The notes under the pieces were generated by a model. That model did no database searches. It was not told the origin of the DNA and saw only the letters and a list, made by a program, of their open reading frames with translations. From Candidatus Saccharimonadota bacterium (GTDB taxonomy: Bacteria; Patescibacteriota; Saccharimonadia; Saccharimonadales; Saccharimonadaceae), in assembly GCA_030523715.1 (NCBI GenBank), contig JAUNHY010000003.1, positions 7,201-71,200 of the forward strand: a DNA stretch of 64,000 bases. The letters run 5' to 3'. A program made the translations under genes and the position numbers. Positions 45,410-63,594 of this stretch are shown piece by piece; the first letter of the stretch is position 1, and each line of letters opens with the position of its first letter.

Positions 45410-46186
45410 TTATTTTCCGGCCACTTGAATTACTTTTTCAAACAGCATTGCAACCGTAAGTGGTCCTACTCCGCCAATCTTCGGCGTAAGTGTTAGGTCG
45501 TCGCGTTCGCGCGCGGCGTCGTCGAGGTCGCCTTTTATCACGCCGCCTTCCGAAGCTGTACCAGCATCGACGATTACGCCACCATACTTGATCATGGTAG
45601 CCTTAATCAGGCCCGGTACACCTGTCGCCGTTACGATTACATCGTAATCAGATAGTAAGTTCAAATCACTACCTTTATCAAAAACCGTCACATCATAGTT
45701 GCTCTCGCGCCACATTTTTTCAAGCGGAGCACCAACCAACTTTCCATGACCGACGATTGCCAGTTTTTTATTCTCAAGCTCGACGCCATAGCCAGTCAAT
45801 AGCCAATGAATCGCCATCGCGGTTGCCGTATCGGATTCGCCACGAAGACCATCAACATCTTTTGCGAGCGGAATCAGATCCAAAATCTTCATATCGCACT
45901 CAGCGAGCGGCAATTGTACGATAATTCCCGTCACTTTTTCATCATCGGCTGCGGTGTGCAATTTTTCCTCCGCATCCGCCGCTGTTAATTTTATTACTTC
46001 AACATCGATATTAATATCTTCGCCGTATTTCTGCTTTAGTGACATGTATTTTGCGATTACTGGCGAATCGTTATCGTAGAAAATCGTGAGCTTCGGAAAA
46101 ATCTTTTTTGCCCGTAATTGGCGCACTTGTCTAGCCTGACGTTCTTTTACGTAGCCAGCCAATTCACGCCCGTTTAATTCTTTCAT
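45410..46186 (-). CDS. folD: Methylenetetrahydrofolate dehydrogenase/cyclohydrolase
   Basis: GRELAGYVKERQA N-terminus, VGHGKLVGAPL Rossmann loop, and PKIGGVGPLTVAML C-terminal motif. Short form (258 aa). Confidence 0.88.
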   Translation of the reverse strand: MKELNGRELAGYVKERQARQVRQLRAKKIFPKLTIFYDNDSPVIAKYMSLKQKYGEDINIDVEVIKLTAADAEEKLHTAADDEKVTGIIVQLPLAECDMKILDLIPLAKDVDGLRGESDTATAMAIHWLLTGYGVELENKKLAIVGHGKLVGAPLEKMWRESNYDVTVFDKGSDLNLLSDYDVIVTATGVPGLIKATMIKYGGVIVDAGTASEGGVIKGDLDDAARERDDLTLTPKIGGVGPLTVAMLFEKVIQVAGK

Positions 46187-47214
46187 TTATCTCCTAATTC
46201 CATTGGCTCTTGTTCGAGTTTGTAGCCGTACTTCTCGTAGACCGCATCGATTACGGCTTGGCGAGCCTTAGCGAGATCGGCATAATTCTTGGCGCTCTCA
46301 TTTATTAATACTAGTGCCGCCTTATCCGATACGCGCATGCCGTAAAATTCCTTGCCTTTTAGCCCGGCATTTTCAATCAGCCAGCCGCTCGGCACTTTGC
46401 CACCATCCCAAACCGGTATGCCCTTTGCCTCGGCCTTTTTTGTTTCTTCTTCGTCGAGATAAACATTCTTAAAGAAGGAGCCGGCGGATGCAAATTCGGC
46501 CGGATCCGGCAACTTGCCAGCACGTACGGCTGCCACGCCATCGCGAATTACCTGCGGATTAAACTCGGTAATTTTATGTTCGTCAAAATATGCTTGAAGG
46601 GAAGTGTAAAACGGAGGTTTGAGCCAATTCTTGTGTAATTCCAGAGTTACACTCGTAATAAAATAGCGGCCAACACCATCTCCAGTATTGAATATGCTGT
46701 GACGATAGCCCAAATCTAGTTCGTCGGCCATCATGTGCTTGAAACAGTTATCTTTATTGTCGTAAACGCAAACCGAATGTAGCGTTTGCGCAATTTCTTG
46801 CCCATATGCGCCAACGTTCTGTACCGGCGCAGCTCCGACGGTGCCCGGAATTTTGCTTAAAGCCTCAATCCCGCACCAACCATAGAATTCGCCATTCCAA
46901 AGCTTTACGCTGTACTCAACTAAATCATCGAGTAATTCGCCACTTTTTGCGCATAGGCGAATACTATCTTTATCGCTATCTATTACATAAATCCCATGCA
47001 ATTTGTTGACGAAAATTACACCATTAAATCCTCCGTCGCGGCCGATTACATTACTGCCGCCGCCCAAAATATAAGTTGGTAAATCTTTTTCTTTCGCGAA
47101 ACGATAAGCCTCAGCGAGGTCTTTGTCTTCCTCTATCTCAATGACATACCTTGCGGCGCCACCGAGCCTCATGGTTGTTAATTCTGCTATTGGTACATTT
47201 TCGCGAATCTTCAT
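46183..47214 (-). CDS. murB: UDP-N-acetylenolpyruvoylglucosamine reductase
   Basis: LTTMRLGGAARY...ILGGGSNVI FAD-binding N-terminus. ATGA overlap with folD. Confidence 0.9.
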   Translation of the reverse strand: MKIRENVPIAELTTMRLGGAARYVIEIEEDKDLAEAYRFAKEKDLPTYILGGGSNVIGRDGGFNGVIFVNKLHGIYVIDSDKDSIRLCAKSGELLDDLVEYSVKLWNGEFYGWCGIEALSKIPGTVGAAPVQNVGAYGQEIAQTLHSVCVYDNKDNCFKHMMADELDLGYRHSIFNTGDGVGRYFITSVTLELHKNWLKPPFYTSLQAYFDEHKITEFNPQVIRDGVAAVRAGKLPDPAEFASAGSFFKNVYLDEEETKKAEAKGIPVWDGGKVPSGWLIENAGLKGKEFYGMRVSDKAALVLINESAKNYADLAKARQAVIDAVYEKYGYKLEQEPMELGDK

Positions 47215-47317: not shown

Positions 47318-48352
47318 TTGGCAAATGAAAAACTTAGCCCAGAAGTCGCTGCGCAAATAGAACAATTTCGCCGCGAATTCGAGGAACATCTTTCGCACCC
47401 GAGCCTTGGCCTGGCGTCAAGAATGCGTTCCGAGCTCAATCGCCGCCAGATGGCTTACGCGAAATACGACAAGTATATTTTGGCGCCCATTCCGCAGGAT
47501 TATCCACTGCCCGCAAAAGGTAAGCTGATTCTCCGTGAGAAAGACGATGAAGACCCGACGCCATACGTAACTGTAATCTGCGATATGACACCCGCTTTCC
47601 AGCGTAACGATATCCGACGCGCCCGTCAGAACCTTATCGACAACTCTCAGAGCTTTGACTATGTTGCGCTTAGCGACGATGAGTGGGGCGATTTGATCGA
47701 TCGCGAAATCGAAAAGCGTGATAATCTACCGATACCGTACTATCATGAGGCGTTACGGGATTTTACGATCTATTCGGACGATGGCGTAATTCTGCCGTTT
47801 TGTCGCAGTAATTTACCTCGCATCAAATACAATGGCTACGACATCATTCCGGTGGTTGACACGCTCGTCAACTGCGAGCGCAATCAATTGCTGCTGTTTG
47901 GCCTTGGCCTGATGAATATCGAAGAAGATATCTACCAAGTTACAATCTACTGGTTTGGAAATGTTAAATCCGACTATCACGACAACGTGGTTCGTACTCT
48001 GCTGGGATATTTCTATGCTCAGTGGGCTTTCCACACTTGTCCCGAGCGCATTATAGAAGTTCGTCCCGGAGATCCCGATCCGTTCGAAGAGGAAGACGCA
48101 GCCCAGAAAAAGCCGCGTAAGGACTATGCACGCCGGCCCGGCCAGGCTAGCATTGCGCGCAAAATCTATATTCGCGACTATCCATCCGATAAGAAACGCG
48201 CCATCGAGCGCCGCTGTCGCTGCTGGTATGTGCATGGCTTTATGCGTACTTACAAGAACGGTAAACAGGTCTGGATTGATGGCTACTTCAAGGGCCCCGA
48301 CCGCGATAATCCGAATGCTCGCCAACACACTAAAGATTATGTCATGACCTAA
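47318..48352 (+). CDS. Hypothetical 344-aa protein (mildly GC-elevated)
   Basis: TTG start 6 nt after GGGGGA. No TM. C-terminal RRCRCWYVHGFMRTYKNGKQVWIDGYFKGP motif of unknown family. Uses CCG/CCC Pro codons and two CGG Arg codons. Confidence 0.55.
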   Translation: MANEKLSPEVAAQIEQFRREFEEHLSHPSLGLASRMRSELNRRQMAYAKYDKYILAPIPQDYPLPAKGKLILREKDDEDPTPYVTVICDMTPAFQRNDIRRARQNLIDNSQSFDYVALSDDEWGDLIDREIEKRDNLPIPYYHEALRDFTIYSDDGVILPFCRSNLPRIKYNGYDIIPVVDTLVNCERNQLLLFGLGLMNIEEDIYQVTIYWFGNVKSDYHDNVVRTLLGYFYAQWAFHTCPERIIEVRPGDPDPFEEEDAAQKKPRKDYARRPGQASIARKIYIRDYPSDKKRAIERRCRCWYVHGFMRTYKNGKQVWIDGYFKGPDRDNPNARQHTKDYVMT

Positions 48353-49252: not shown

Positions 49253-49746
49253 AAGCTGAGCGTAAAACAGCATGGGGCGAAAAGTGGAGCGAGCAAACCG
49301 ATGACAGAAAAGAGCGTATGTTGATAGCACATCTTTGTAATTATGATAAATTATCGTATGTGGGATGGGGCGAATCTTTCTTTACCAATGCGCCTTTAGG
49401 TGAAGAAGAAAGTTATCACGACCGAATCAGGCGCCAAACATTTGATGCATCGCAGCGTCTGAAATACGGTAGAGGATATAAAGACGTTAGAATGCTTAAG
49501 AAAGTTATTTCTCACTATCCGGATCAAAAAGAATATGCCGAATTATTAATTGAACGTATCCGAGAATTGGACGCGCGCGATGGCATGACGCCGCGTGAAT
49601 ATCGTATTGCCCTGCGTCAACAAAAGAAGCGCGGTGAAACAGGCGATGAAAAAGCTGTGCATTCCGATGTAATGGAAAGACTTGGCGAAGAAATAATTGA
49701 AGCCGGTGAGGCGACAAGTGAGGATAAAGATGGAGCAGAAAAATAA
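49207..49746 (+). CDS. Hypothetical 179-aa charged helical protein
   Basis: The ATG sits only 2 nt after GGGAGG. This frame is closed upstream by TAG at 49129-49131. Confidence 0.45.
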   Translation: MAKAAEQERQRRAAIEAERKTAWGEKWSEQTDDRKERMLIAHLCNYDKLSYVGWGESFFTNAPLGEEESYHDRIRRQTFDASQRLKYGRGYKDVRMLKKVISHYPDQKEYAELLIERIRELDARDGMTPREYRIALRQQKKRGETGDEKAVHSDVMERLGEEIIEAGEATSEDKDGAEK

Positions 49747-52144
49747 TCCCCAGCCAACTAAGGGAAAAACCGAAACCACAGAGTCGAAAGCCAAAGCTGA
49801 GCCGACGCTAAAAACCGAAGTGCCTACACCTAAGGAAGAACAACCAAAAAAGAAGGGCGATGGCTGGATAAAGTTCCTTCGCATCTTAATATGGTGCGCC
49901 GTAATAATTATCCTAACAGTCGGACTTCAACTTCGTGCTCTTAGTAGGACCTCTTCTGCATACGCTGACGGTTCATATGCGGCTAAAGCTAATCTTGGCA
50001 ATACGCTTTTCTGGATAGGTTTAATTCTCGGTCTCGCCAACCTTGCCTGGGGTGCTTATCGTTGGTTCTCGCGTCTCGTTAAAGAAAAATGGAAAGCTGG
50101 TAAGATTATTGGTAAACTTATTGGCGGTGGTATCTGGCGCACTTTAGCGATTATGCCAGTAATTGCTATCGCGTATTTCTTTATCTCTCCGGCAATTATC
50201 GCCAAAACCGCACCAAAAACGACGGAATTTACGAAATACGGCTCAGTTCTGCATAACGTTGACGTTGAAGATATGGAAAGCCTTTCCGAAAACGAAAAAG
50301 AGCAATTGATCGAATTACTATTTCTACCAAATGTTAAATTCGACACGGATGCCAGTCAGAATATTTCGACAAAAAAATCATTGTTTACGCCTAGTGCTTA
50401 TGCCGGCTCAAAAGTGACAGTTCTAAATAAGGCGAAACTCTCGCCAGACAAAAAATTCGTAATCTTCTATACCGACACTGGAGACGATAAAGTTTCCGAC
50501 GATGGTGTTGCAAACATGGGAGCCATGCTCGATGAAATTGTAAAATCTTATAAAACCATCTATGGCCAAAACCTTGATTATCATAAATCCGATTTCAATG
50601 GCGTAGATAATACTGAAACCATGCAGAAAGTTTTAGCTAGCAATGGCATCGACAAAAACATCATGAACACGGCTATGCCAGTATATATCGTCAATCCTTA
50701 CACGGATAACATTGAGGGGACTTTGGCTTCATATGCTGGAACGGAATGGAACGATGAAACGCACCAAAAGGCGCTAAGATGGGCATTTATTGCCGAAAAA
50801 TATCAAAGAGAACAGGCAAATCTATATAAGTCGGCTCCTAGCCTACCATTTATCCATGTTCAACCGGAGGCGGTCGGAAATATTAGTACGTACGAATCCG
50901 TCGCGCACGAGCTGGGGCACCATTACATATCGAATTATTGTTTCATTAATGGCGGTGGTAGCTGCGAGATTCATAAAGCATTAAATGAAGCCACGGCAAA
51001 TTATCTAGCTATTAATGTTACGCCATCGGAAAAACAGGGTGAGGTCATTAATGGGCATTATCAATCATTTTTAATTGGCAACTGTTACTCGCCAGACAAG
51101 ACTATCCAGGAGCCAATCAAGAATTATGGATGTCATAGTACGGGTAGTTTTATAGGATATCCGGCCTTGGCTTATGTCCATAATTATTCAAAAACCGTTC
51201 CTAACGGTAGCAAGATTATATTTGATTCATTTATGCAGAGTAATCAGATTGAGTATCTTGCAGCTCAGGCCGGCCAAGCAAATTACAAAAAAGTCATGCA
51301 GGCATACTCTTCCCATACCATCCTGAATGATTATGGTATCAAAGACTTAAATGCGGATTCGCTACCAAATGGTCATAAAGTTCCATGCTATGACTTCTGT
51401 ACGGAAGATTATAAGATGTTCTATTCGAGTATACGTTTTATGTATGCCACGAAGTCGGATTTCTTAAACAAAACTATAAAAATGACCACGAATGATAACG
51501 ATATTACTTTCCAATTGTTTGGCGAAAAAAATGATACTTGGCAAATAATCGAATCGGCGGATAGTGAAATATCCTTTACATTCCTGGGAAAGACCGAATA
51601 CGACACGGTAGCCTTCTCGCCAATAAACTATTCCGCAGACCAAGACCGCATGATTACGATTAGTATTTCCGATAGCGAAATTGAGGAAATTCTCGAAGAG
51701 CCGGAGCCGACGGAAGAGGAAGAGGAGGACCCGTACAATCCTGTAACCACGGACGATAATGGCTGTATGCGCATCGAGATCAAGAGTCTCATGGAGCTTC
51801 CGGGCAGGCTTTATAAAATTCTCAGCGAATCGGAATTTTCCGAGAGTGAAATCGCCAAAGAGCTTCAGCAGGCCGACAAGGATGCGACTGCCGCTGCTGA
51901 AAAAATCGACTTCGAGATTTTGACTATCTGCGAAGATAAGATTAAGCAGGGTATATCATTTGACCAGGCCAATTCAATTATTAAAAAATCCACGCATTCT
52001 TTCCATCTTGGCACTAATAAGAGTAGTGAAGCGAATATTTCGGCATTAGTAAGATATGAGCCACTTACGCGTCGAGCCAAAGGTTATGTTTTGGTCGAAA
52101 CGCCAGACATTGGTCTCCATTTATATAGCATTATGGTCGATTAA
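49730..52144 (+). CDS. Membrane-anchored gluzincin-type metalloprotease candidate
   Basis: Start at ATG 49730 (GAGGA 5 nt upstream). Disordered N-terminus, about 4 TM, then a large domain with HELGHH followed 21 aa later by ALNEATANY (thermolysin-like HExxH ... NExxSD spacing). Confidence 0.65.
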   Translation: MEQKNNPQPTKGKTETTESKAKAEPTLKTEVPTPKEEQPKKKGDGWIKFLRILIWCAVIIILTVGLQLRALSRTSSAYADGSYAAKANLGNTLFWIGLILGLANLAWGAYRWFSRLVKEKWKAGKIIGKLIGGGIWRTLAIMPVIAIAYFFISPAIIAKTAPKTTEFTKYGSVLHNVDVEDMESLSENEKEQLIELLFLPNVKFDTDASQNISTKKSLFTPSAYAGSKVTVLNKAKLSPDKKFVIFYTDTGDDKVSDDGVANMGAMLDEIVKSYKTIYGQNLDYHKSDFNGVDNTETMQKVLASNGIDKNIMNTAMPVYIVNPYTDNIEGTLASYAGTEWNDETHQKALRWAFIAEKYQREQANLYKSAPSLPFIHVQPEAVGNISTYESVAHELGHHYISNYCFINGGGSCEIHKALNEATANYLAINVTPSEKQGEVINGHYQSFLIGNCYSPDKTIQEPIKNYGCHSTGSFIGYPALAYVHNYSKTVPNGSKIIFDSFMQSNQIEYLAAQAGQANYKKVMQAYSSHTILNDYGIKDLNADSLPNGHKVPCYDFCTEDYKMFYSSIRFMYATKSDFLNKTIKMTTNDNDITFQLFGEKNDTWQIIESADSEISFTFLGKTEYDTVAFSPINYSADQDRMITISISDSEIEEILEEPEPTEEEEEDPYNPVTTDDNGCMRIEIKSLMELPGRLYKILSESEFSESEIAKELQQADKDATAAAEKIDFEILTICEDKIKQGISFDQANSIIKKSTHSFHLGTNKSSEANISALVRYEPLTRRAKGYVLVETPDIGLHLYSIMVD

Positions 52145-52979: not shown

Positions 52980-52993
52980 GAAAACTTATGCTT

Positions 52994-53002
52994 TGCTATA
53001 AT
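52994..53002 (+). promoter_or_regulatory. Extended -10 (TGCTATAAT), 6 nt upstream of GTG 53009
   Basis: Perfect TGnTATAAT. It lies inside the longer ORF-track prediction. Confidence 0.45.
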
Positions 53003-53008
53003 AAAATA

Positions 53009-53692
53009 GTGAATATTTTGGAAACAGAAAAACTGACAAAAATATATGGCAAAGGCAGTAATTCCATTAAGGCCGTAGATAATGTTTCGTTTAAAGTTAA
53101 GGAAGGCGATTTTATCTCAATCGTCGGCACTTCCGGTTCGGGTAAATCGACCCTACTTCATCTATTGGGTGGCGTTGATCGGCCAACTTCCGGTAGGGTG
53201 CTCATTGATGGCAAAGATATTTATAAACTATCGAACAATGAATTAGCTATTTTTCGTCGTCGTGAGATTGGAATCGTTTACCAATCTTTTAACTTGATTC
53301 CAATATTAAACGTCGAAGATAATATCACTCTCCCACTTAAGCTGGACCATCAGAAAATTAACAATAAAAAGCTGGAGCATATATTAGGATTATTAAGCAT
53401 CAAGAGGCAGAGAAAGTATCTACCAAACCAACTTTCGGGTGGCCAACAACAACGCGTGGCAATAGCCCGAGCCTTAATTGGCGACCCTTGTGTCATCTTG
53501 GCTGATGAGCCGACCGGCAATCTTGATTCAAAAAATAGTCAAGAAATAATCGGGCTGCTACGTGCTCTTAATGATGATAGTGGATGCACAATTATTATCG
53601 TTACGCACGATGAAAATATAGCCAGACACACTAAGCGAATTATTCGTTTCGAAGATGGCAGAATAGTCGAAGACGAGAGAAAAAATACATGA
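53009..53692 (+). CDS. ABC transporter ATP-binding protein (MacB/LolD-like)
   Basis: Walker [10 protein letters not shown], signature [15 protein letters not shown], Walker [12 protein letters not shown]. Start moved to GTG 53009 (VNILETEKL...), which matches the paralog N-terminus MSILKVTNL. Confidence 0.88.
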
Positions 53693-55872
53693 ACATTCTG
53701 GCTCAACTAACTATAGAAAACATTAAATTAAATCGCCGGCGCACGATTGTGACGATAGTCGGCGTAGCTTTATCGTGCGCGTTAATTGTTGCTGTGGCCG
53801 GCATGGTTGCTAGCTTTCGCCAAATGATGATAGATGTTGCTGTTAATGAATATGGTAATTATCACGACATGTATGAAAATGTGTCACAAAATGGGCTTAC
53901 AATCATTAAGCAAAATCCAGACATTGCAAGTTATTATTATGGGCGTATAGAAATAAATGATGAGACTAAAACCGACTACCTTGGTAACGGCGTAATTGAC
54001 TGCAATTCGATTGAAATCACCGATAAGTATGACGATAACGCAGAGTGGCGCGGTGTATTCGTGCGTTATAAAAATATCAAAGATTATGAAAGAGTCCGCA
54101 GCGATATTATGACGAAGATATCGGAAGTAGATGGCAAGCACACCAAGATTCGCACTAATTCGGAGTTGATGCGTTACGAAGGCGTAATGGGTAATCGGCT
54201 ATTCCAAACTATCTTGGGCCTAGCCGCAGTGGTTATTAGTATTATTGTTATATGCAGTGTATTTGTGATTCGAAATTCGTTTAGTATTTCAGCCACAGAG
54301 CGCATGCGCCAGTTTGGATTATTAATGAGTATCGGTGCAACGACATGGCAAATTCGTACGCTTGTCTATATTGAGGGCGCTATCATTGCTATATTTGGCA
54401 TCATTTTAGGAACTGCAATTGGTGTTTTGGCTGATATAGTGCTTGTCTGGATTATCAACATACTTCTTAAGGAGATGTTATCTATGACGAACGGAATGAT
54501 AGAAGAGATACGATTTGTACTACCAGCTATCGTGCCATTATCCTCGGCGCTTTTTACGATTATAATCGTCTTCTTCTCGGGCATTTCGGCCGCACGCCGT
54601 GCCGCCAAATTATCTCCTATTGGTGCACTTCAAGGTACGCAAGATTATAAGATCGACAAAAAAATACGTAGTTCAAAGTTAATAAAGAAGCTATTTGGCA
54701 TTGGTGGAGTCGTGGCTGATAAAAACCTTCGTAGGAGTAGGCAAAAATACCGCACGACAGTTATCTCGCTTGTCGTGAGCATAGCGGTATTTATCGGATT
54801 ATCCAGTTTAACTAATTATGGTTCGAAGGTAATTGGTCTCCAGTATGCGAACATAAATTATGACATTATTACCATTACGGACAATAAGACTATCCTCGAA
54901 CAGATAAAGAACGTTCGCGAGATTGATGACATTTGCGTATTTCGGGAAGCTCGAACCAGCACGATAGATATTTATATTTTAGATGATGAAACCTTCTCGT
55001 CATACGCCAGGTCTGTTGGTGTGAAAGAAAACGATTATTCACGCACCGTAATCCTGAACGACTATGTATTAGAAAATATTAACGGAAAGAGAGAAGTCAA
55101 AAAAACGACGAATATCGATGATGGCGACGATGTGATAGTAGAAATAATGGACTATGACGATGATTATCACGCTATTTATAATCCGTTGAACTTGCATATT
55201 GCCAAAACTACCGATAAGCAACCAAATTTTTCAAAAGATAGTTATTTTGCTGCTTATTATATTTCCGATGACTATTATCAAATTCAGCAGATTATTAATT
55301 TTGCAGACGAACGAATTATGGATTACCACATTCTAATCTCAGCGAATAACTCGAGTTCGGTCGCAGAGAAAATAGAACAATTATATGAGAAAGAATCAGA
55401 TAACACTAAATCGTTCTATATCGACAACGTCTCGCAAGATGCGCGCATCATGCGGAACATGCACTTATTACTTTCGATCTTCTTGTATGGATTCGTTATT
55501 GTTATTAGTCTTATTGGATTAACGAATATCTTTAATACTATTTCGACCAATATCGCATTACGAGCAAAAGAATTTGCAATATTAAAATCTGTCGGCATGA
55601 CGAATAAAGAATTTAATCGCATGATTCGTCTCGAGAGCGCTTTATATTCATTGAAATCGCTAATGATTGGCGTTCCGTTAGGAGTAGTTTTGTCGTACTT
55701 AGTCTATCATGCTATTGCGAATTCATTTGATTATGGCTACGTTTTACCGTTAAACTCTATTATTATTTCTATAGCCGTAGTTGCTATTCTCGTTTTTGCC
55801 ATCATGGGCTACTCGGTCAAGCAGGTGGACAAGCAAAACATTATTGAAACTATTAGGAACGATAATATATAA
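53689..55872 (+). CDS. FtsX-family ABC permease with two FtsX modules and a large external loop
   Basis: 727 aa. ATGA overlap with the ATPase gene. Repeated ...RMRQFGLLMSIGAT / ...RAKEFAILKSVGMT FtsX motifs. Confidence 0.85.
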   Translation: MNILAQLTIENIKLNRRRTIVTIVGVALSCALIVAVAGMVASFRQMMIDVAVNEYGNYHDMYENVSQNGLTIIKQNPDIASYYYGRIEINDETKTDYLGNGVIDCNSIEITDKYDDNAEWRGVFVRYKNIKDYERVRSDIMTKISEVDGKHTKIRTNSELMRYEGVMGNRLFQTILGLAAVVISIIVICSVFVIRNSFSISATERMRQFGLLMSIGATTWQIRTLVYIEGAIIAIFGIILGTAIGVLADIVLVWIINILLKEMLSMTNGMIEEIRFVLPAIVPLSSALFTIIIVFFSGISAARRAAKLSPIGALQGTQDYKIDKKIRSSKLIKKLFGIGGVVADKNLRRSRQKYRTTVISLVVSIAVFIGLSSLTNYGSKVIGLQYANINYDIITITDNKTILEQIKNVREIDDICVFREARTSTIDIYILDDETFSSYARSVGVKENDYSRTVILNDYVLENINGKREVKKTTNIDDGDDVIVEIMDYDDDYHAIYNPLNLHIAKTTDKQPNFSKDSYFAAYYISDDYYQIQQIINFADERIMDYHILISANNSSSVAEKIEQLYEKESDNTKSFYIDNVSQDARIMRNMHLLLSIFLYGFVIVISLIGLTNIFNTISTNIALRAKEFAILKSVGMTNKEFNRMIRLESALYSLKSLMIGVPLGVVLSYLVYHAIANSFDYGYVLPLNSIIISIAVVAILVFAIMGYSVKQVDKQNIIETIRNDNI

Positions 55873-55880
55873 AGCATAAG

Positions 55881-55889
55881 TGGTAAAAT
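55881..55889 (+). promoter_or_regulatory. Extended -10 (TGGTAAAAT), 7 nt upstream of ATG 55897
   Basis: TGnTAAAAT. No SD. Confidence 0.45.
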
Positions 55890-55896
55890 AAAAGAA

Positions 55897-56649
55897 ATGA
55901 GTATTCTTAAGGTAACAAATTTGGTAAAAACGTACGGCAAAGGCAATAATCTAGTCAAAGCCGTAGATGATGTTAGTTTTGAAGTGCCAGAAGGTGAATT
56001 TGTCGCCGTAGTTGGCGCATCTGGTTCTGGTAAATCTACGCTCTTACATTTAATTGGTGGCGTCGATAATCCTACGTCCGGCAGTATTATTGTAGATGGG
56101 GAAGACATCTCAAAATATAACTCGGATAAACTTGCTGTTTTTCGCCGCGAAAAAGTCGGAATTGTTTATCAGTTTTATAACTTAATTCCAGTTTTAAATG
56201 TTGCAGAAAATATTACATTGCCGACTGATCTTGCAAATAAAAAAGTTGATCAAGGATATCTTAAGGAATTACTCGAAACGCTCGGTTTGGCTGATCGCGT
56301 CAAACATTTGCCGAATCAATTATCTGGTGGTCAACAACAACGCGTGGCGATTGGTCGTGCGCTATTTAATCGACCAAAGCTAATTCTTGCCGACGAGCCA
56401 ACGGGCAACCTTGATAAAAAATCTAGCGACGAAATTGTTGGCTTGCTTAAGACTGCGAACCAAAAATATCATCAGACTATCATTCTTGTTACGCACGACT
56501 TAAATATCGCGTCGCAAGCAGACCGCATCATCACATTTGAAGATGGCAAAATCATTTCCGACGAGCATAAGGCAACGGAACCGGTCACTGCTGAATTAGG
56601 GCAAATTGAGCAGACAGAGATGGATAATGAAAATCCTATCGAAGCTTAA
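55897..56649 (+). CDS. ABC transporter ATP-binding protein, paralog of 53009..53692
   Basis: [35 protein letters not shown]. Confidence 0.9.
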
Positions 56650-58972
56650 TCTCGATAATTTAAAACAAAATCGTACGCGCACCATCGTGACGATTTTGGG
56701 TGTCGCGATGTCAATTATGCTGATACTGACCACTATTGGTATCGCTACCAGTTTTTGGTTTACCGAATACGATTCGATTCGCAAAGAATATGGCGATTAC
56801 CATGTTATGTTTGAGAATATTCCAGGCGACAAAGTATCTATATTGGAAAACTCGAAATTCTTTAATGTGGAGTATTATTCTGAACCGGTGGAGGCGGTTA
56901 TTGACAAAGATGGAGAACGATATCTTTATTGGTATGGCCCATATCCGGTTTCGAGCTATACGAAAATTACAGCAGATGAACTGAAGCGCGATCGGAATCA
57001 TTCATACAATGTGTTTTTGAAATATAAAGATTTCGAAAATACGCAATTTGCTGACAAAATGCAAAAACGCGCACTGGAAGAAGCCGACGTCGAGGATGTC
57101 TATGTACGATACAATAGTGATCTTCAAATGTTGGAAGGTGGTATTCCAAGAACATCACGAATTGCTCTGGCCGCATTCACTACTTTAGTGCTAGGCGTAA
57201 TGGTAATTGCAGCCGCCTTCGTGATTCGTAATTCATTTAATATTTCAATTACCGAACGCGTGCGCCAATTTGGCATGCTTTCTAGTGTCGGAGCTCGTCC
57301 ACGTCAGATTCGTCGTATGGTCTATATGGAGTCCGCAATCATCGGCTTAATTGCTTTACCGATTGGCATTGGCTTAGGTTGCCTACTAACTTTTGGCGTA
57401 GTTGTTTTATTTAATACATTATTGAGCGATATTATGGATGCGATTGGCATGGAACTAGTATTTTTTATTCCATGGCAAGCCATTATTATCATTCTAATCG
57501 TGACGGCAGTGCTAATATTTCTGTCTGCCGTTTCGCCAGCTATTGTGGCTGGGCGGTATAGCCCACTATCAGCATTGCGCAGCAACCAAGACATAAAAAT
57601 CAAGGCGCGCAAAGTACGCACCTCAAAACTTACGCGCAAAATTTGGGGCATAGGCGGCGTAATAGCACGCAAAAATCTCAAACGCAGTCGACAAAAATAT
57701 CGCACCACGGTTGTGTCGATTGTTCTAAGCGTTTCAGTGTTCATTGGCGTGATGTCGTTCATGAATTATAGCCACCGCGTTATAAATTTATTCATTAATG
57801 ATAATGGCTCAAATTTTGTAATTTATGGCAACAGCAACAGCGTGGATACCAATGAAATTGCATCTAATTTTAATCTCAAAGAGTACGCGGCCTACCATTA
57901 TATTTCTTTTGAGACCATTGGCGACGATAATCGTATGCATTTGTCGTTTACTGTCGTGTCGCGCGATGAATTTGCGCGCTACGCCAAGAAAATTGGCGCT
58001 GGTGGCTCCGATTATTCGCGCATGGTAATTCTGCACGATAACCGGAAAATATACCATTCCGACGGCAGTATCTCTAGCGGTCGTTCTACGGATTATAAAG
58101 TTGGCGACACGGTACATATCCGCTCCGTATCCTATAATCTTGATGAGGAAGATAAAACAATTAGAGAACTTATCGAAGACGGCGAGCTCGATATGGACGA
58201 TTTATATGACAAAGACGCAGAGATGACGGAAGAAGAGTTAGCCGAAAGGCTCGATGATACTATTCGAGTATACGGTAATAAAAAATATAAAGACGCAGAT
58301 TTAACGTTTACGCACATTACCGAAAAGGCACCACTCGGCTACAATGAGTCTAGCTATAGCATAGGTGAAGTATTTATTTCCGAGGACTATTATCAAATAA
58401 ACAAAATATATACTACTGATTATTATACGATGTTTATTGCAGACTCCGGTGTAGGTTCCGATATCGCGGAATTTTTAGATAGTGAGGAGATTGTTAAGAA
58501 ATATGGCATTACGAGTTATGAGAATTACGAAGAGTTAATGCGCGTAATTCGTAATACGATTTTGCTAATCGAAATACTAATCTATGGCTTTATTGTAATA
58601 GTGTCACTAATTGGCGTAACAAATATTTTCAACACAATTACCACTAATGTAGCTTTACGCGCCCGCGAATTCGCGATTATTAAATCTGTTGGCATGACTA
58701 GTAAGGAGTTTAACCATATGATTCGCCTCGAAAGCGTCATGTACAGTGCTCGTGCGTTATTAATCGGCCTGCCGATTGGTTTATTAATATCATATGGCAC
58801 GTTCAAATTATTTGACGCGGCTGGTCTTGAGTTTGGTTGGATTATCCCATGGAACGCAATTATTATTAGCGTTGCTTCAGTTGGTCTACTAGTTGCCGCC
58901 ATCATGCGTTATTCGGTACGGAAAATCAAAAGACAAAATATTATCGAAACTATCCGATCGGAAAGTTTCTAA
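56627..58972 (+). CDS. FtsX-family ABC permease, paralog of 53689..55872
   Basis: Start chosen at ATG 56627 ([29 protein letters not shown], compared with [29 protein letters not shown] in the paralog). There is an acidic insert in the external loop. Confidence 0.85.
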   Translation: MKILSKLNLDNLKQNRTRTIVTILGVAMSIMLILTTIGIATSFWFTEYDSIRKEYGDYHVMFENIPGDKVSILENSKFFNVEYYSEPVEAVIDKDGERYLYWYGPYPVSSYTKITADELKRDRNHSYNVFLKYKDFENTQFADKMQKRALEEADVEDVYVRYNSDLQMLEGGIPRTSRIALAAFTTLVLGVMVIAAAFVIRNSFNISITERVRQFGMLSSVGARPRQIRRMVYMESAIIGLIALPIGIGLGCLLTFGVVVLFNTLLSDIMDAIGMELVFFIPWQAIIIILIVTAVLIFLSAVSPAIVAGRYSPLSALRSNQDIKIKARKVRTSKLTRKIWGIGGVIARKNLKRSRQKYRTTVVSIVLSVSVFIGVMSFMNYSHRVINLFINDNGSNFVIYGNSNSVDTNEIASNFNLKEYAAYHYISFETIGDDNRMHLSFTVVSRDEFARYAKKIGAGGSDYSRMVILHDNRKIYHSDGSISSGRSTDYKVGDTVHIRSVSYNLDEEDKTIRELIEDGELDMDDLYDKDAEMTEEELAERLDDTIRVYGNKKYKDADLTFTHITEKAPLGYNESSYSIGEVFISEDYYQINKIYTTDYYTMFIADSGVGSDIAEFLDSEEIVKKYGITSYENYEELMRVIRNTILLIEILIYGFIVIVSLIGVTNIFNTITTNVALRAREFAIIKSVGMTSKEFNHMIRLESVMYSARALLIGLPIGLLISYGTFKLFDAAGLEFGWIIPWNAIIISVASVGLLVAAIMRYSVRKIKRQNIIETIRSESF

Positions 58973-58975
58973 TTA

Positions 58976-61378
58976 TTACATTCCTAGTTCTTCGCGAATC
59001 ATTTCGGTTGTGACATGAATGTCGGCGCCATTACCAACTTCGCCACTAAGCACATATTTTGCCACAATATTTTCAACCGTCTTCTGGACGATGCGGCGCA
59101 TCGGACGCGCGCCAAGTTTTGGATCGTATCCAGCATCAACAAGCAGCTTTTTACCACCCTCATCAACAGTAACATTAATCTTTTGTGGTGCCAGGGTTTT
59201 ATTAACGCCTTTCAAAATCAAGTCAATAATCTGAACTAGCACTTCCTTAGATAACGGCTCAAAGGCGCAAATCTCATCAAAGCGGTTCAAGAATTCTGGC
59301 TTAAATGCGCCAGTCTTTATTAGTTCATTCGTAAGTTCATCCTTCACTTCTGCGATACTTAATCCTTGGTCAATATAATCGCGGATTTTTTCGGCGCCCG
59401 CGTTGCTCGTTGCGATCACGATCGTGTCGCGGAAACTGACTTCTTTGTTATTAATGTCGCGCAAGATACCTTCGTCTAGCAGCTGGAGCAGGGTAGTAAG
59501 TACCTGTGGATGTGCTTTCTCGATTTCGTCTAGTAATACGACGGCAAATGGATGTTTCATGACCTGTGCCGTTAAACTCAGCTCGTCGGTAGCACCATCG
59601 GCAATTAAACGTTGAACATCTGTAGAAGAAACATATTCGTTCAAGTCGATGCGAATCATTGTGCCTTCGCCATGGAAATATACTTCGCTCAATGCTTTTG
59701 CGAGCTCGGTTTTGCCTACGCCGGTTGGACCCATGAATAAGAATGTACCGATTGGGCGATTCTCATTTCGCACGCCTGCTGCGGCGCGCCTTAGGGCATC
59801 ACTCACGGCTTTTACTGCGCCCTCCTGATCAATCATGCGTTCATGGATGAGACTTTCGAGATTAAGCAGACGCTCTTTATCTTCGTCATTATTTGTTGAC
59901 TGCATCTTTACGCCGTAGATCTTCTCAATGGCCGCCTGTACGGATGCGTCGGTGACAAAATGATGTTCATCGGCTTGGCCGGCCGCTGCTTCAAGCAGGT
60001 TTAGCGCGCGTCCTGGCATTACTAAATCGTGGACGTAACGCGAAGATAATCGATAAGCTTCCGTCAGTGCCCAGTGCGTATAAATAACATTATGTTGATA
60101 CTCAAGCTGCGGTACATGGTCTTGCATAATTTTCATTGTTTCTTCTTCGTTGGCTTCCGCAACCATGACTTTATTGAGTGCATTTGCTAACGTGCTATTA
60201 CGCGAAGATATTTCGAGGAATCTTTGCTCGTCCATCGTTAAAATGATACGTAGCTTACCGCCTTCAAGTATTGGCAGTAATACATTCGCAATATCCACCG
60301 AACCAACACCCTCTTCGAAGAATAATTGTGCATTATCAAGCCAGATAATAATATTTTTTGCCATGTAAGCTTCAGCTAGAATGTTGCGCACTAGTCTTTC
60401 AATGCCGCCATGACCTTCCGAAACACTAATCAGGGCTGCCGCATCGAGTTTAAAAATCTGGCGGAACTGGAGGCGGGAAGAAACCTTACTATCAGCATCC
60501 ATTATTTTATCCGAGAATGCCGTCACGATAGTCGAGCGTCCACTGCCTTCTGGACCAATAATTGCCACATTCTGGCGACCGCCGCTCGAGAAAATTGAGA
60601 TAATTTTTTCAACGATTTCATCGTGTGCGGCTAAATGTACCTGTTCTTTGATAGCACCCTCGCGAGATTTTGAAACATTAATTGCGAGCTCTTGTAAAAG
60701 TGGCGTATAACCGAACATTAAGTCGCGCGCAAAGCCGCCCGTATGACGAGATTTACTCATACTCTTTACCAGGCCATGCAGATAGTTGTACCACTTAATA
60801 CCATCATAAAGATCATTGAGTGTTAGCTTCATGCGACGCAAAATATCTTCGTGATTTGGATGGCATTCGATAATTGCTACTCCAAGCATTGCTCCCGCAA
60901 TTTGCTCGCCATCAGTTTTCTGCATGATTTCGCGGGCTTTTTCAAAAATTGGCGTTGCGTCTTCTGGTAAATCGGCTGCCATCAACTCAAGTAGAGCCGG
61001 AGTTACAGCATAGCGGAGTGCTAAAAAGCCGCCGCTCTGAGTTTTGCAAACCAAATCTGCAATTTGGCGCACATTTGGTTTTCGGCCGAGTAAAGTCAGT
61101 ACGTCGCGCGAAATAATATTATTAATATCATCCGGGTTGCCCGATGTTGGGCGGACTAGCTCAAATTTGAGCCAAATCACGAACATCAAGAATAGCGAAG
61201 CGATGCCGATTAGCAACCACCCCATCGATTCGTGCTGAGTGATTAAAATTGCCAGACCGCCCGCCGTTAAAGCGATCATTGCTAGAATGAGCAAAGCGGT
61301 TACGAACCAATGCCCGAATACTTTACCAAGTCTCGCCTCTTGGGCACGCAGGGAATTATATCTAAATTCGTTTTTCAT
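58976..61378 (-). CDS. Membrane-anchored two-ring Clp/Hsp100-like AAA+ protein with a degenerate D1
   Basis: Two N-terminal TM, a Clp_N-like region, D1 Walker A GPEGSGRS and Walker B IIWLDNAQ, D2 Walker A GPTGVGKT and Walker B VVLLDEIEKA, plus GARPMRR. Start at ATG 61378, which forms an ATGA overlap with the upstream gene. Confidence 0.85.
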   Translation of the reverse strand: MKNEFRYNSLRAQEARLGKVFGHWFVTALLILAMIALTAGGLAILITQHESMGWLLIGIASLFLMFVIWLKFELVRPTSGNPDDINNIISRDVLTLLGRKPNVRQIADLVCKTQSGGFLALRYAVTPALLELMAADLPEDATPIFEKAREIMQKTDGEQIAGAMLGVAIIECHPNHEDILRRMKLTLNDLYDGIKWYNYLHGLVKSMSKSRHTGGFARDLMFGYTPLLQELAINVSKSREGAIKEQVHLAAHDEIVEKIISIFSSGGRQNVAIIGPEGSGRSTIVTAFSDKIMDADSKVSSRLQFRQIFKLDAAALISVSEGHGGIERLVRNILAEAYMAKNIIIWLDNAQLFFEEGVGSVDIANVLLPILEGGKLRIILTMDEQRFLEISSRNSTLANALNKVMVAEANEEETMKIMQDHVPQLEYQHNVIYTHWALTEAYRLSSRYVHDLVMPGRALNLLEAAAGQADEHHFVTDASVQAAIEKIYGVKMQSTNNDEDKERLLNLESLIHERMIDQEGAVKAVSDALRRAAAGVRNENRPIGTFLFMGPTGVGKTELAKALSEVYFHGEGTMIRIDLNEYVSSTDVQRLIADGATDELSLTAQVMKHPFAVVLLDEIEKAHPQVLTTLLQLLDEGILRDINNKEVSFRDTIVIATSNAGAEKIRDYIDQGLSIAEVKDELTNELIKTGAFKPEFLNRFDEICAFEPLSKEVLVQIIDLILKGVNKTLAPQKINVTVDEGGKKLLVDAGYDPKLGARPMRRIVQKTVENIVAKYVLSGEVGNGADIHVTTEMIREELGM

Positions 61379-61752
61379 AGCGCCACCCCCATGATCGTCA
61401 GAATAATTGTGGCTACTGGCACCAGCGGAATAAATGGCCAAGCTAAGAAGAGAATAAAGCCGAGTGTTGCCTCTAGAGCAATTGCCAGAATGCCGGCTAT
61501 CATAATTCCAATGCGCACAATTGCGCCAATCGTTCGCGAGAGAAGTTTATCGAAAAATGCCTGCATGCGCGCTTGCATCGAAGCGTTTTCGTCGGAATAT
61601 GCGGATATTTGTCTAAACGGATAGAACAGAGTGCGCGCTAAAAGTCCCAGAGAGAAGAAATCTGCTAAGTTGTGTAGTTTATCGAGTAGTTTATGCGCAA
61701 AAGTTGACCACCCGCGCGAGTACCACCACTTCAAAAAGCCGACCATTAACAT
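61375..61752 (-). CDS. Small polytopic membrane protein translationally coupled to the AAA+ gene
   Basis: About 125 aa with hydrophobic C-terminal helices. Start taken at ATG 61752, 6 nt after TATAAT. Confidence 0.55.
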   Translation of the reverse strand: MLMVGFLKWWYSRGWSTFAHKLLDKLHNLADFFSLGLLARTLFYPFRQISAYSDENASMQARMQAFFDKLLSRTIGAIVRIGIMIAGILAIALEATLGFILFLAWPFIPLVPVATIILTIMGVAL

Positions 61753-61758
61753 AACCAA

Positions 61759-61764
61759 ATTATA
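61759..61764 (-). promoter_or_regulatory. -10 hexamer TATAAT, 6 nt upstream of ATG 61752
   Basis: Read on the reverse complement. Confidence 0.4.
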
Positions 61765-61831
61765 TAATAAAACTTGAAGAATTTCGATGCTTATGCTAAT
61801 CTAAAATCAAAGTAACAATAAGGAAACAAAA

Positions 61832-62401
61832 ATGCAAAAACAGAAAAACTTCCAGTTAGCCGTTATTGGTGTGCTCGCCTTTGCGGTTATTTTCATGTCT
61901 GTCGGCTTCGCGGCCTATTCACAGACACTAAATATCAACGGTACAACCACAGTTCAGGGCAACAAGTGGAGCGTCCATTTTGATACTGCCACCTTCCAGC
62001 GCGCTGAGGGTTCCGTTGTGGAAACCAGTAAGAGCGTTAGCAACACTTCTATTACTTATGCTGCCACGCTCGAGAAGCCAGGCAACAAATTTGCTTTTAC
62101 TATTGATGTTGTGAACGACGGTACTTTTGATGCCACTCTAAATAAGATTACACTCTCAACGCTCACGGAAGAGCAGGCTAAATATCTAAAATACACGCTT
62201 GTTTACGATAATGATTCTGACAATCCATATACGGCCACAACTAGCGGCCTCAGCATCGGTTTGCCACATACTACCGGCTCAAACCGTAAGCCGGTAATGG
62301 TTGTAGTCGAATATGTCGCCCCAGACAACGCCGATGATCTTCCAGAATCGAGCGTAGCCATCAGCCTTACTGCCGCTCTTGATTACGTCCAAGCAGAATA
62401 A
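61832..62401 (+). CDS. Secreted beta-rich protein with a SipW-cognate-like signal peptide (TasA/camelysin-like)
   Basis: The N-terminus ...VIFMSVGFAAYSQTLNINGT resembles the GGT.A.F.D cleavage region of TasA/CalY-type signals. SD AAGGA upstream. Lies immediately upstream of a SipW-type peptidase. Confidence 0.45.
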   Translation: MQKQKNFQLAVIGVLAFAVIFMSVGFAAYSQTLNINGTTTVQGNKWSVHFDTATFQRAEGSVVETSKSVSNTSITYAATLEKPGNKFAFTIDVVNDGTFDATLNKITLSTLTEEQAKYLKYTLVYDNDSDNPYTATTSGLSIGLPHTTGSNRKPVMVVVEYVAPDNADDLPESSVAISLTAALDYVQAE

Positions 62402-62439: not shown

Positions 62440-63594
62440 ATGCATTTTTTAACAAACGAGAAGAAAATTCGTTTATTCGAATTGTTGATGCTTGTCTCTG
62501 CGCTCATCTTCTGCGTAATATTTTCGAGCGCCACGAGTTTATTTAAAACATATGCCATCATTCTCTCGTTTGTCCTTATCTTCTCAATTAGTGTAATAGC
62601 GATTGGCTACCGCAGGGATAAACATTATCTCCGCGGTAGTGCGTCGCGCACGATCATTGCAGTATTACTAGCTGCACTAATTTTGATTTTTATGCTGGGC
62701 GTATTCCTTGGCTTTAATCGAAGTTATGCTTCGCTAGATATATCCAAAAATCTGCAAGGTTTCGTTCCAGCACTTTTATTGGCAGTCATAACCGAATTAT
62801 TGCGACATACGTTATTAAGGAAAAATGTCGTAAAAACTATAGATGTTGTATTTTTTACAACAATAACTTCAATTATATGCATATTACTAGCGTTCAATCC
62901 TGCCACAATCGTCGATGCCGAGTCGGCCTTTATCTTTATTTGCACGATTATCCTTCCAATAATTGCAACCGAAACACTTTGTACTTTCTTGGTTCGACAT
63001 ATTGGGCTCCAACCGAGCCTTACTTACAAAATCCCCATTAAAGTTTACATGTACATTCTGCCGATTATTCCAAATCTCGGCTCTTATCTTTATGCCGTGA
63101 CGGCTATTGTGATGCCGTTTGTCATTTATCACTTGGTCTTAAAGCTTGAGTCGTTCGATCGCAATGCGGCCGTACGCATTCATAAAATGAATAGTGGGAT
63201 TATAGCAATTCCGGCGACTCTATTCTTAATTACAGTCGTAATATTCGTTTCGGGTATCTTTAAATTCCAGCTGATCGCCGTGGGGTCAAATTCGATGGCG
63301 GGGACATTCGACCGCGGCGATGCTGTGATGATAGAGAAAACCAACCCCAAAACGGTTAAGGATAATGATATAATTGCATTTAGGAAAGACGGGATGATTA
63401 TTACGCACCGCGTCGTCGAAACGCACATTACGGACAATCGTTATGAGTTTATTACAAAGGGGGATGCGAATGATGATATTGATAGCTTTACGACTGGCGG
63501 CGAGAACCTCATAGGCATAATTCGCTTCCGCACAAAGTATATTGGCTTTCCAACTCTTTGGATAAACGAATTATTTAATAAGGAAATAGAATGA
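62440..63594 (+). CDS. Polytopic membrane domain fused to a SipW-type (S26B) signal peptidase I domain
   Basis: About 8 TM in the first 260 aa. The C-terminal AVGSNSMAGTFDRGDAVMIEK...IIAFRKDGMIITHRVVE...ITKGDANDDID parallels the SipW SGSMEP...GDVI...THRI...TKGDNN pattern (Ser/His type). Confidence 0.7.
   Translation: MHFLTNEKKIRLFELLMLVSALIFCVIFSSATSLFKTYAIILSFVLIFSISVIAIGYRRDKHYLRGSASRTIIAVLLAALILIFMLGVFLGFNRSYASLDISKNLQGFVPALLLAVITELLRHTLLRKNVVKTIDVVFFTTITSIICILLAFNPATIVDAESAFIFICTIILPIIATETLCTFLVRHIGLQPSLTYKIPIKVYMYILPIIPNLGSYLYAVTAIVMPFVIYHLVLKLESFDRNAAVRIHKMNSGIIAIPATLFLITVVIFVSGIFKFQLIAVGSNSMAGTFDRGDAVMIEKTNPKTVKDNDIIAFRKDGMIITHRVVETHITDNRYEFITKGDANDDIDSFTTGGENLIGIIRFRTKYIGFPTLWINELFNKEIE

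Follow-up and report, generated by a model that had tools for sequence, protein, structure and literature searches.

A membrane-anchored Clp/Hsp100-derived protein with a degenerate first ring and its small membrane partner in Saccharibacteria

The gene pair and its two products

The window analyzed in this study is a stretch of 64,000 nucleotides (nt) from a Candidatus Saccharimonadota bacterium (contig JAUNHY010000003.1, assembly GCA_030523715.1), in which two overlapping genes on the reverse strand encode membrane proteins. The upstream gene (61375..61752, -) encodes a membrane partner protein of 125 amino acids (aa) that belongs to an uncharacterized family. The downstream gene (58976..61378, -) encodes a membrane-anchored, Clp/Hsp100-derived protein with two AAA+ modules and a length of 800 aa, counted from its ATG. 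The stop codon of the small gene and the start codon of the AAA+ gene share bases in an ATGA overlap of 4 nt (61375..61378, -; junction sequence ...GCGCTATGAAAAA...), indicating translational coupling. An initial annotation of the window, made from the sequence alone, had reported the same frames, product lengths and overlap, which were confirmed on the sequence. With a probability of about 0.9, the two genes are a membrane module that is inherited vertically in Saccharibacteria and in at least some further Patescibacteria; in it, a 125-aa protein with two transmembrane segments is translationally coupled to an 800-aa derivative of Clp/Hsp100 that an N-terminal hairpin anchors in the cytoplasmic membrane. 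The large protein probably functions differently from standard Clp chaperones, because the catalytic residues of its first AAA+ module (D1) and the gripping tyrosines of both rings are lost. The named homologs of both proteins are from Candidatus Saccharibacteria (TM7).

In the large protein, Pfam recognizes the domains AAA_lid_9 (residues 411-502), AAA_2 (541-703) and ClpB_D2-small (709-789), and D1 only as a weak generic AAA match (273-382). Pfam and Foldseek together reveal two tandem AAA+ modules (D1 and D2) and a D2-small domain, which is the layout of Class I Clp/Hsp100 proteins. The AlphaFold2 (AF2) model of the monomer has a predicted local distance difference test (pLDDT) value of 84.3 and was matched by Foldseek to protomers of ClpC, ClpB, ClpC1 and ClpA, with a template-modeling score (TM-score) of ~0.84 and a root-mean-square deviation of ~4 Å over ~575 residues. 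The best NCBIfam scores are far under their cut-offs (388 versus 1232 bits for ClpB, 358 versus 993 bits for ClpA), and the ClpB, ClpA, ClpG/K and ClpV models all score about one third of theirs.

The protein begins with a conserved basic tail (residues 1-23; 61310..61378, -) with the pattern F.Y.S.RA.EAR.GK, in which R11 is invariant and R16 nearly so. The tail is followed by a transmembrane helical hairpin (residues 24-74; 61157..61309, -) with a very short outside loop, TQHES. Hydropathy places the transmembrane segments at residues 28-46 and 52-70, and AF2 draws helices H24-48 and H52-74. The two helices of the initial annotation are thus retained, although the protein does not start with them but with the 23-residue, presumably cytoplasmic tail. 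Among 76 aligned relatives, two hydrophobic N-terminal segments are found in 56 and one in 20. The hairpin is most likely oriented N-in/C-in with the AAA+ rings in the cytoplasm, since the charges follow the positive-inside rule (five basic residues before the first helix, the loop TQHES, and K/R after the second helix).

An all-helical N-domain follows (residues 85-207; 60758..61126, -), delineated by AF2 and by weak profile matches, and its size would fit a Clp_N double repeat. Pfam Clp_N gave no match at E <= 1 in 18 sequences (the large protein and 17 relatives). The family profile of the N-domain has weak similarity to the N-domains of Hsp104 (E = 0.003) and ClpA (E = 0.26), and one more distant relative (L101, see below) attains the Pfam Clp_N cut-off; the N-domain is therefore probably a very divergent Clp_N. 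Of the ClpB/ClpC layout proposed initially, D1 and D2 are borne out by Pfam, alignment and fold, while the region called Clp_N-like shows this weak profile similarity and no Pfam match. Between the N-domain and D1 lies a linker with the family signature GG.ARD..FGYTPLL (60692..60739, -), in which G215, R218, G223, P226 and L228 are invariant.

The motifs of both modules were checked by translation and by residue-level alignment to T. thermophilus ClpB and to ClpE. D1 (residues 250-500; 59879..60631, -), identified by Pfam, these alignments and the fold match, appears to be a pseudo-ATPase and has no M-domain (middle domain) insertion. Its Walker A motif reads GPEGSGRS (60533..60556, -; GEPGVGKT in ClpB), with Arg in place of Lys, and its Walker B motif reads IIWLDNAQ (60326..60349, -; LFIDELH in ClpB), with Asn in place of the catalytic Glu. 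The alignments agree with the initial annotation on both substitutions. A rescue by a shifted Lys or Glu was rejected, as there is no Lys close to GSGRST, and the EE pair (residues 355-356) belongs to the loop past the Walker B strand. At the arginine-finger position TLANALNKV (60167..60193, -; ALERRFQPV in ClpB) both Arg are lost, and this loss (LERRF to LANALNK) is kept family-wide. The D1 pore-1 loop position, SVSEGHGGIERL (60392..60427, -; AKYRGEFEERL in ClpB), contains no aromatic residue, with SEGHGGIE standing where ClpB has AKYRGEFE.

We found 1889 homologs of the large protein, of which 121 are at least 60% identical to it and form the closest set. At the Walker A position of D1, 115 of these 121 sequences have R and six have K, and 119 have N at the Walker B position, so that neither substitution is due to chance. 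A search with residues 1-500 against 1.84 billion cluster representatives gave 91 matches at E < 1e-30. In more distant members of the family (27-44% identity), the Walker A Lys is retained, but none of them has the Walker B Glu or either pore tyrosine, which suggests that the change from Lys to Arg was a late step in an already dead D1. The named examples that keep Lys are environmental Saccharimonadales; the Walker A Arg is thus a feature of this protein and its clade rather than of the whole family. Across the 76 aligned relatives, mean identity amounts to 73% in the D2 large domain, 57.5% in the D1 large domain and 33% in the transmembrane hairpin. The value for D1 argues for a module that is degenerate yet under selection, as a structural pseudo-ATPase would be. 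That D1 is catalytically dead and D2 active is well supported at the level of these motifs.

The D2 large AAA+ domain (residues 510-705; 59264..59851, -) is the most conserved part of the protein, with Walker motifs GPTGVGKT and LLDEIEKA, a TSN sensor-1 and the arginine finger in FLNRFDE. The ClpB_D2-small domain (residues 709-789; 59012..59254, -), located by Pfam and alignment, carries sensor-2 in GARPMRR. D2 is canonical, as first described: its motifs are 100% conserved among the 121 closest sequences, and Walker A and B, sensor-1, arginine finger and sensor-2 are invariant in 121/121 close and 76/76 broader relatives. The D2 pore-1 loop is reduced to the remnant LIADGATDELSLT (59570..59608, -), which is acidic, lacks an aromatic residue and is five residues shorter than its ClpB counterpart GAPPGYVGYEEGG; the core of the remnant is ADGATDE. 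The consensus of this loop in the closest set is LIADGA[TE]D.LSLT. No gap placement puts an aromatic residue into either pore-1 loop of the large protein or its 121 closest relatives, and the loss also holds across the Saccharibacteria representatives. To our knowledge, pore-1 aromatics grip the substrate in every characterized Hsp100.

Two further features of Clp proteins, a ClpP-binding loop and a middle domain, had been raised in the initial annotation, and neither was found. At the position of the ClpP-docking loop (RDYIDQGLSIA; 59351..59383, -), V-G-F of ClpE aligns to I669-D670-Q671, and the family has no conserved [ILV]-G-[FL] tripeptide there, its columns being I/V, D/E and variable. 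The alignments contain no counterpart to residues 392-520 of ClpB or 346-398 of ClpE; residues 469-474 of the large protein span the ClpB segment, with ~127 residues missing, and ClpA aligns in one stretch.

The small protein has 143 homologs, every one named hypothetical protein. Its family has no match in Pfam, NCBIfam or PADLOC, and a permissive Pfam scan of 96 members gave none either. Residues 1-74 (61531..61752, -) form a basic, aromatic-rich, amphipathic and conserved part with the patterns WWY..GW, DFFS..LL..TLF.PFRQIS and FFDKLLSR, which by the positive-inside rule is presumably cytoplasmic. Residues 75-125 (61378..61530, -) contain, by hydropathy, two transmembrane-like segments (75-93 and 107-125), and two such segments occur in 89 of 96 family members. 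The initial description of the protein as polytopic holds for these C-terminal segments and is overstated with regard to the ~74 residues that precede them. W9, W10, Y11, G14, S34, L38, F43, P45, Q48, G76, R80, G87, W105 and P109 are invariant. The AF2 model is confident and all-helical (pLDDT 90), and comparing it with the PDB gave nothing significant (best E = 2.1). A resemblance to PspA/ESCRT-III-like or BAR-like proteins was dropped (all matches E > 2), as was homology to the transmembrane hairpin of the ATPase (hhalign probability 0.9%, not significant).

Conservation and genomic context

A genome scan with one genome per species, seeded with a five-sequence alignment, found a relative of the large protein in at least 495 genomes. 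Loci were counted in the best 80 of these, of which 79 were usable. The 80 genomes are of Saccharibacteria, Saccharimonadales, Nanosynbacter or Nanosyncoccus, save three records with other or unspecific titles. At 79 of the 80 loci, the gene immediately upstream, in the same orientation, encodes a homolog of the small protein, and the 80th locus ends at a contig edge. For 76 of these 79 AAA+ genes, the closest start codon in frame overlaps the stop of the small gene by 1-13 nt, 35 of them having a 4-nt [A/G/T]TGA overlap. Two distant members that retain the Walker A Lys were checked singly and have the same pair arrangement.

Similar pairs occur in an outer group of relatives. Many further representatives (820-900 aa) likewise start with hydrophobic segments. 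A metagenome scan seeded with one outer-group relative yielded 68 loci, 54 of which contain a full-length ATPase together with upstream DNA. Fifty of these ATPases are anchored by transmembrane segments, and 44 of the 50 have a small-protein homolog directly upstream (hidden Markov model E-values of 1e-24 to 1e-3). The other six have no scored match there, and several of them have an upstream open reading frame (ORF) of 112-118 aa with a hydrophobic segment. The D1 Walker B Glu, the D1 arginine fingers, the D1 pore Tyr and the ClpP tripeptide are missing in all 50. The four ATPases without transmembrane segments are textbook Clp proteins (DE Walker B, RRF, KYRG, GYVG and IGF/LGF), and none of the four has the small partner. 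A named pair comes from Candidatus Nealsonbacteria DGGOD1a (Minisyncoccales), in which UMX48282.1 is annotated as ‘AAA family ATPase’ and UMX48281.1 as ‘hypothetical protein’. The module thus spans at least two classes of Patescibacteria, its range outside Saccharibacteria being drawn from this one named genome and from metagenome contigs.

The outer group includes some unusual architectures. Four transmembrane-anchored relatives of 1170-1224 aa (L120:1847-5452, L131:3524-7093, L134:3431-7015 and L140:3419-7090) have a degenerate D1 followed by two copies of AAA_2 plus ClpB_D2-small, giving three AAA+ modules, with the small partner upstream. The relative L101 (3407-6178) keeps a GSPPGY pore loop in D2 and a Clp_N repeat recognizable by Pfam, and has a weak zinc-ribbon-like (Anti-TRAP) match N-terminal of its transmembrane segment. 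The ancestor of the family may have been similar to L101.

In seven of the 150 cluster-representative relatives listed (P0363, P0345, P0334, P0320, P0329, P0351 and P0378), the small-protein domain is fused to the ATPase as its residues ~1-120. The fused domain contains the motifs W.Y... and D.FS..LL.TLFAPWR.D, followed by transmembrane segments. By Rosetta-stone reasoning, the seven fusions point to a 1:1 physical association. The complex with the small protein that was initially proposed thus gains support from several sides, namely the pairing at all 79 usable loci, the distant members, the fusions and a phenotype shared in Southlakia; the co-occurrence of the pair in other genomes is established by the 79/79 Saccharibacteria and 44/50 outer-group loci.

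This phenotype comes from transposon sequencing of Southlakia epibionticum (Wang et al., 2023; PMC10633639, Table S1), in which SEML1_0700 and SEML1_0701 were both called NE, NE and GD over three passages. Normalized reads fell from 4124 to 1638 for SEML1_0700 and from 258 to 51 for SEML1_0701 between T0 and T2 (PMC10633639). SEML1_0700, an ‘AAA family ATPase’, has AAA_2 at 544-706 and D2-small at 713-792 (541-703 and 709-789 in the large protein described here) and no Clp_N. SEML1_0701 is a hypothetical gene of 384 nt, directly upstream of and overlapping SEML1_0700. According to these data, Southlakia can do without the module for a short time, yet the module contributes to fitness, and both apparent orthologs behave alike; the loss of either has only a mild fitness cost in laboratory co-culture. 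Southlakia also encodes a canonical ClpC (SEML1_0512, with two Clp_N repeats, UVR, AAA_2 and D2-small) and ClpP (SEML1_0493), so the pair is additional to the housekeeping Clp system. Both SEML1_0512 and SEML1_0493 were called NE (PMC10633639). Our literature search found no description or characterization of this family; whether the ‘clpB’ of the TM7x transcriptome paper (TM7x_03020) belongs to it could not be told.

No third gene is conserved near the pair in the 79 loci, the commonest neighbor occurring in 25. The commonest neighbors are a divergent GatD (25/79) and MurT (24/79), together lipid II isoglutaminyl synthase, and MurB downstream (16/79); in the window, MurB is located at 46183..47214. 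About a third of the Saccharibacteria loci have the pair divergently next to MurT and GatD, an adjacency that includes SEML1_0702 and SEML1_0703 of Southlakia. The surroundings are thus a loose cell-wall neighborhood and no conserved operon.

A promoter-like TCGAAA-17-TATAAT sequence (61759..61787, -) lies 5' of the small gene as a consensus match only. It is the one good match of this kind for the pair. Its -10 box ends 6 nt ahead of the ATG, so that a transcript starting from it may have a very short leader or none at all. The region contains three such promoter-like matches versus 6.1 expected by chance from shuffles, and the evidence for this promoter is weak.

Downstream of the pair and convergent with it are two tandem MacB/FtsX-type ABC systems (52988..58972, +), each consisting of an ATPase (234 and 250 aa) and, after it, a large permease of the FtsX/MacB type (727 and 788 aa) that contains a long extracytoplasmic insert. 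A distance of 3 nt separates the end of the second permease gene from the stop codon of the AAA+ gene, which runs on the other strand. Divergently upstream of the pair lies a gene for a 189-aa protein (61832..62401, +) with an N-terminal hydrophobic segment and no family match, followed by a gene (62440..63594, +) for a polytopic membrane protein of 384 aa that ends in a signal peptidase I of the SipW/archaeal type (TIGR02228, 68 bits). Homologs of the 189-aa protein occupy the same position in 13 of 79 related loci, which suggests a surface protein processed by SipW. Elsewhere in the window, four large ORFs on the forward strand (49697..52144, 41794..45360, 29046..31016 and 47318..48352, with 815, 1188, 656 and 344 aa, respectively) have no Pfam match at E <= 1e-5. 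The window further encodes a surface-type DUF11-repeat protein of 699 aa (38457..40556) and the anaerobic ribonucleotide reductase NrdD (21760..24108).

Possible mode of action and alternatives

The features of the two proteins can be combined into a tentative model, to which we give somewhat less than an even chance as a whole: a 1:1 complex in which D1 serves as scaffold and D2 as motor, and which remodels its partner without threading. The small and the large protein would form heterodimers, and six of these would assemble into a hexamer, by analogy with all Hsp100s, with a ring of ~24 transmembrane helices over two stacked AAA+ rings. The D1 pseudo-ATPase would act as a scaffold for assembly and transmission. 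With its invariant P-loop glycines, it may still bind nucleotide, but it should be unable to hydrolyze ATP because the Walker B Glu and the arginine fingers (in this clade also the Walker A Lys) are lost. D2 would be the sole motor of a machine that neither feeds ClpP nor cooperates with DnaK via an M-domain. Hydrolysis in D2 would be passed via D1, the N-domain and the transmembrane hairpin to remodel, gate or cycle the small partner or a client held by it. Remodeling is likelier than processive threading since both pore-1 loops have lost their aromatics in the Saccharibacteria lineage.

Several points weigh against this picture. The physical complex, its oligomeric state and its ATPase activity are predictions, and the non-threading remodeling is a default reading of missing features rather than a positive finding. 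The transmembrane topology of the large protein follows from hydropathy, the positive-inside rule and an AF2 model of the monomer, and AF2 draws residues 59-120 of the small protein as a single long helix, which should not be over-read. The orthology of SEML1_0700 and SEML1_0701 is deduced from gene sizes, the overlap and near-identical Pfam coordinates, not from sequence. Other loop residues of the large protein might still grip substrate. In addition, four of the 50 transmembrane-anchored outer-group members keep a D2 GAPPGY loop, and the ancestral machine may have threaded. The 46 members without this loop, on the other hand, show that the conserved function tolerates its loss.

The alternative that survives best is a membrane-tethered, one-ring unfoldase or extractase, which would thread membrane or membrane-proximal proteins like Msp1/ATAD1 or the ATPase of FtsH and use the small protein as adaptor or receptor. 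It accounts for the transmembrane anchor and the cytoplasmic rings, for the catalytically intact D2, for a protomer fold that equals that of the ClpC and ClpB translocases and for the mild fitness phenotype of the pair, and the four relatives with GAPPGY fit it as well. The initial annotation had also suggested that the protein could extract or thread substrates, a proposal that the missing pore-1 aromatics of both rings and the shortened, acidic D2 loop speak against. Pore-loop tyrosines are needed for substrate translocation in ClpB, Hsp104, ClpA and ClpX. Their loss extends from the large protein and its 121 closest relatives across the Saccharibacteria representatives to 46 of the 50 outer-group proteins. 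We therefore regard threading as unlikely, though the D2 tyrosine that a minority of distant relatives have kept leaves it some probability.

Alternatively, the large protein might be a regulatory pseudo-chaperone or scaffold that holds or sequesters the small protein or other factors, with the nucleotide state of D2 as a switch. Such a role would suit the loss of several catalytic and substrate-handling features and the non-essentiality of the apparent Southlakia orthologs. It has a precedent in plant SMAX1/D53, which are degenerate Clp-like regulators, and SMAX1 is a weak sequence match of the large protein. The D2 motifs, however, are invariant in the 121 close and 76 broader relatives, which argues for real hydrolysis under selection and makes a pure switch quite improbable.

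Two further alternatives are hardly credible. ClpP is present in related genomes and the layout without M-domain is ClpA-like, but an ATPase of a membrane-bound Clp protease that delivers substrates to ClpP was rejected on the docking-loop alignment (no [ILV]-G-[FL], VGF replaced by IDQ, acidic or variable family columns) and on the internal canonical controls, as IGF/LGF occurs in the four canonical proteins and in none of the transmembrane-anchored ones; the pore-loop tyrosines are missing as well, and a canonical ClpC exists alongside in Southlakia. A ClpB-type disaggregase or an anti-phage ATPase like DolB of the Dodola system is suggested by the best D2 sequence matches (ClpB) and a PADLOC DolB match (E = 9e-32), yet the former was rejected for want of an M-domain, which excludes DnaK coupling, and of pore tyrosines, and the latter because the match is confined to generic D2 residues (484-669; positions 106-288 of the 375 in the profile), there is no DolA-like partner and the neighbors have no PADLOC match; moreover, at least 495 species genomes carry the pair as a vertically inherited core feature, which lies in housekeeping and cell-wall contexts rather than in a variable island.

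Beyond the scaffold-and-motor model, the pair could represent an undescribed, Patescibacteria-specific membrane machine: a ring of ~24 transmembrane helices (six copies of 2 + 2) with a single-motor Hsp100 derivative that lacks pore-loop threading and might use ATP for gating, for insertion/extraction or to transfer material from the host at the epibiont membrane. This is a long shot. If true, it would add an undescribed machine tied to the reduced, host-dependent lifestyle of Patescibacteria. Hsp100/Clp proteins are textbook soluble, double-motor threaders, and the large protein appears to be a natural derivative that is bolted to the membrane, has one ring turned pseudo-ATPase, has dropped the gripping tyrosines in this lineage and is coupled, sometimes fused, to an uncharacterized protein with two transmembrane segments. 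The pair is a core feature of Saccharibacteria, and most conserved membrane proteins of Patescibacteria are without known function. Genetics exist for Southlakia and Nanosynbacter, so its function is testable. For the AAA+ field, the family offers a test case of an Hsp100 D2 ring without pore loops; for the biology of Patescibacteria (candidate phyla radiation), it offers a conserved, tractable predicted membrane complex with a measurable fitness effect. The analysis also corrects a misleading database name.

Comparison with known systems

Class I Clp/Hsp100 proteins (ClpC, ClpA, ClpB and ClpE) share with the large protein the order of N-domain, D1, D2 and D2-small, a D2 that is 45-50% alignable with all catalytic motifs, and the protomer fold (TM-score ~0.84); ClpA has no M-domain either. 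In contrast to them, the large protein has a transmembrane hairpin and an obligate small membrane partner, has lost the D1 motifs, the pore Tyr and the ClpP tripeptide, and has an N-domain that is not recognized as Clp_N. As judged from sequence, it is a Clp/Hsp100 protein by descent that departs from this class in its D1 motifs, its pore loops, its M-domain and ClpP loop, and its curated scores.

Among Hsp100 systems at membranes, PTEX of Plasmodium (HSP101, EXP2 and PTEX150) is similar in that an Hsp100 hexamer of the ClpB type sits on a small membrane-pore protein, and the HSP101 structures 6e10 and 6e11 are among the sequence matches of the large protein. HSP101, however, is a soluble cargo threader with pore tyrosines in two active rings, and EXP2 is unrelated to the 125-aa protein. 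Dodola DolB (PADLOC PDLC03838) has the ClpB-D2-type AAA_2 module in common with the large protein but consists of a single module of ~375 aa and occurs with DolA in defense islands, whereas the family described here is vertically inherited and has no DolA.

FtsH, Msp1/ATAD1 and Bcs1 are similar in having an N-terminal transmembrane anchor and a hexameric AAA+ ring at the cytoplasmic or matrix face, and FtsH in addition has a two-segment anchor and small membrane partners. They differ as single-ring classical AAA proteins with aromatic pore loops, none of them Hsp100-derived or equipped with a dead extra ring, and FtsH carries a protease domain. A division of labor in which one ring binds nucleotide or scaffolds and the other works is known from NSF (D2) and PEX1/PEX6 (D1). 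These proteins belong to another AAA+ clade, are soluble, and their active ring keeps the pore-loop aromatics.

Torsins work at a membrane together with the small membrane-spanning cofactors LAP1 and LULL1, on which they depend (PMC5425593), much as the large protein is paired with the small one. They further resemble the pair in their Clp-D2 lineage and the lack of an aromatic pore loop. Torsins have a single ring, are luminal and receive their Arg finger from the cofactor, whereas the large protein has its own D2 Arg finger and presumably cytoplasmic rings, and the small protein is not AAA+-like. By analogy, the pair thus appears most like a cross of a double AAA+ protein with one active ring (NSF, PEX1/6), a membrane-anchored AAA+ protein (FtsH, Msp1) and a Torsin-cofactor pair.

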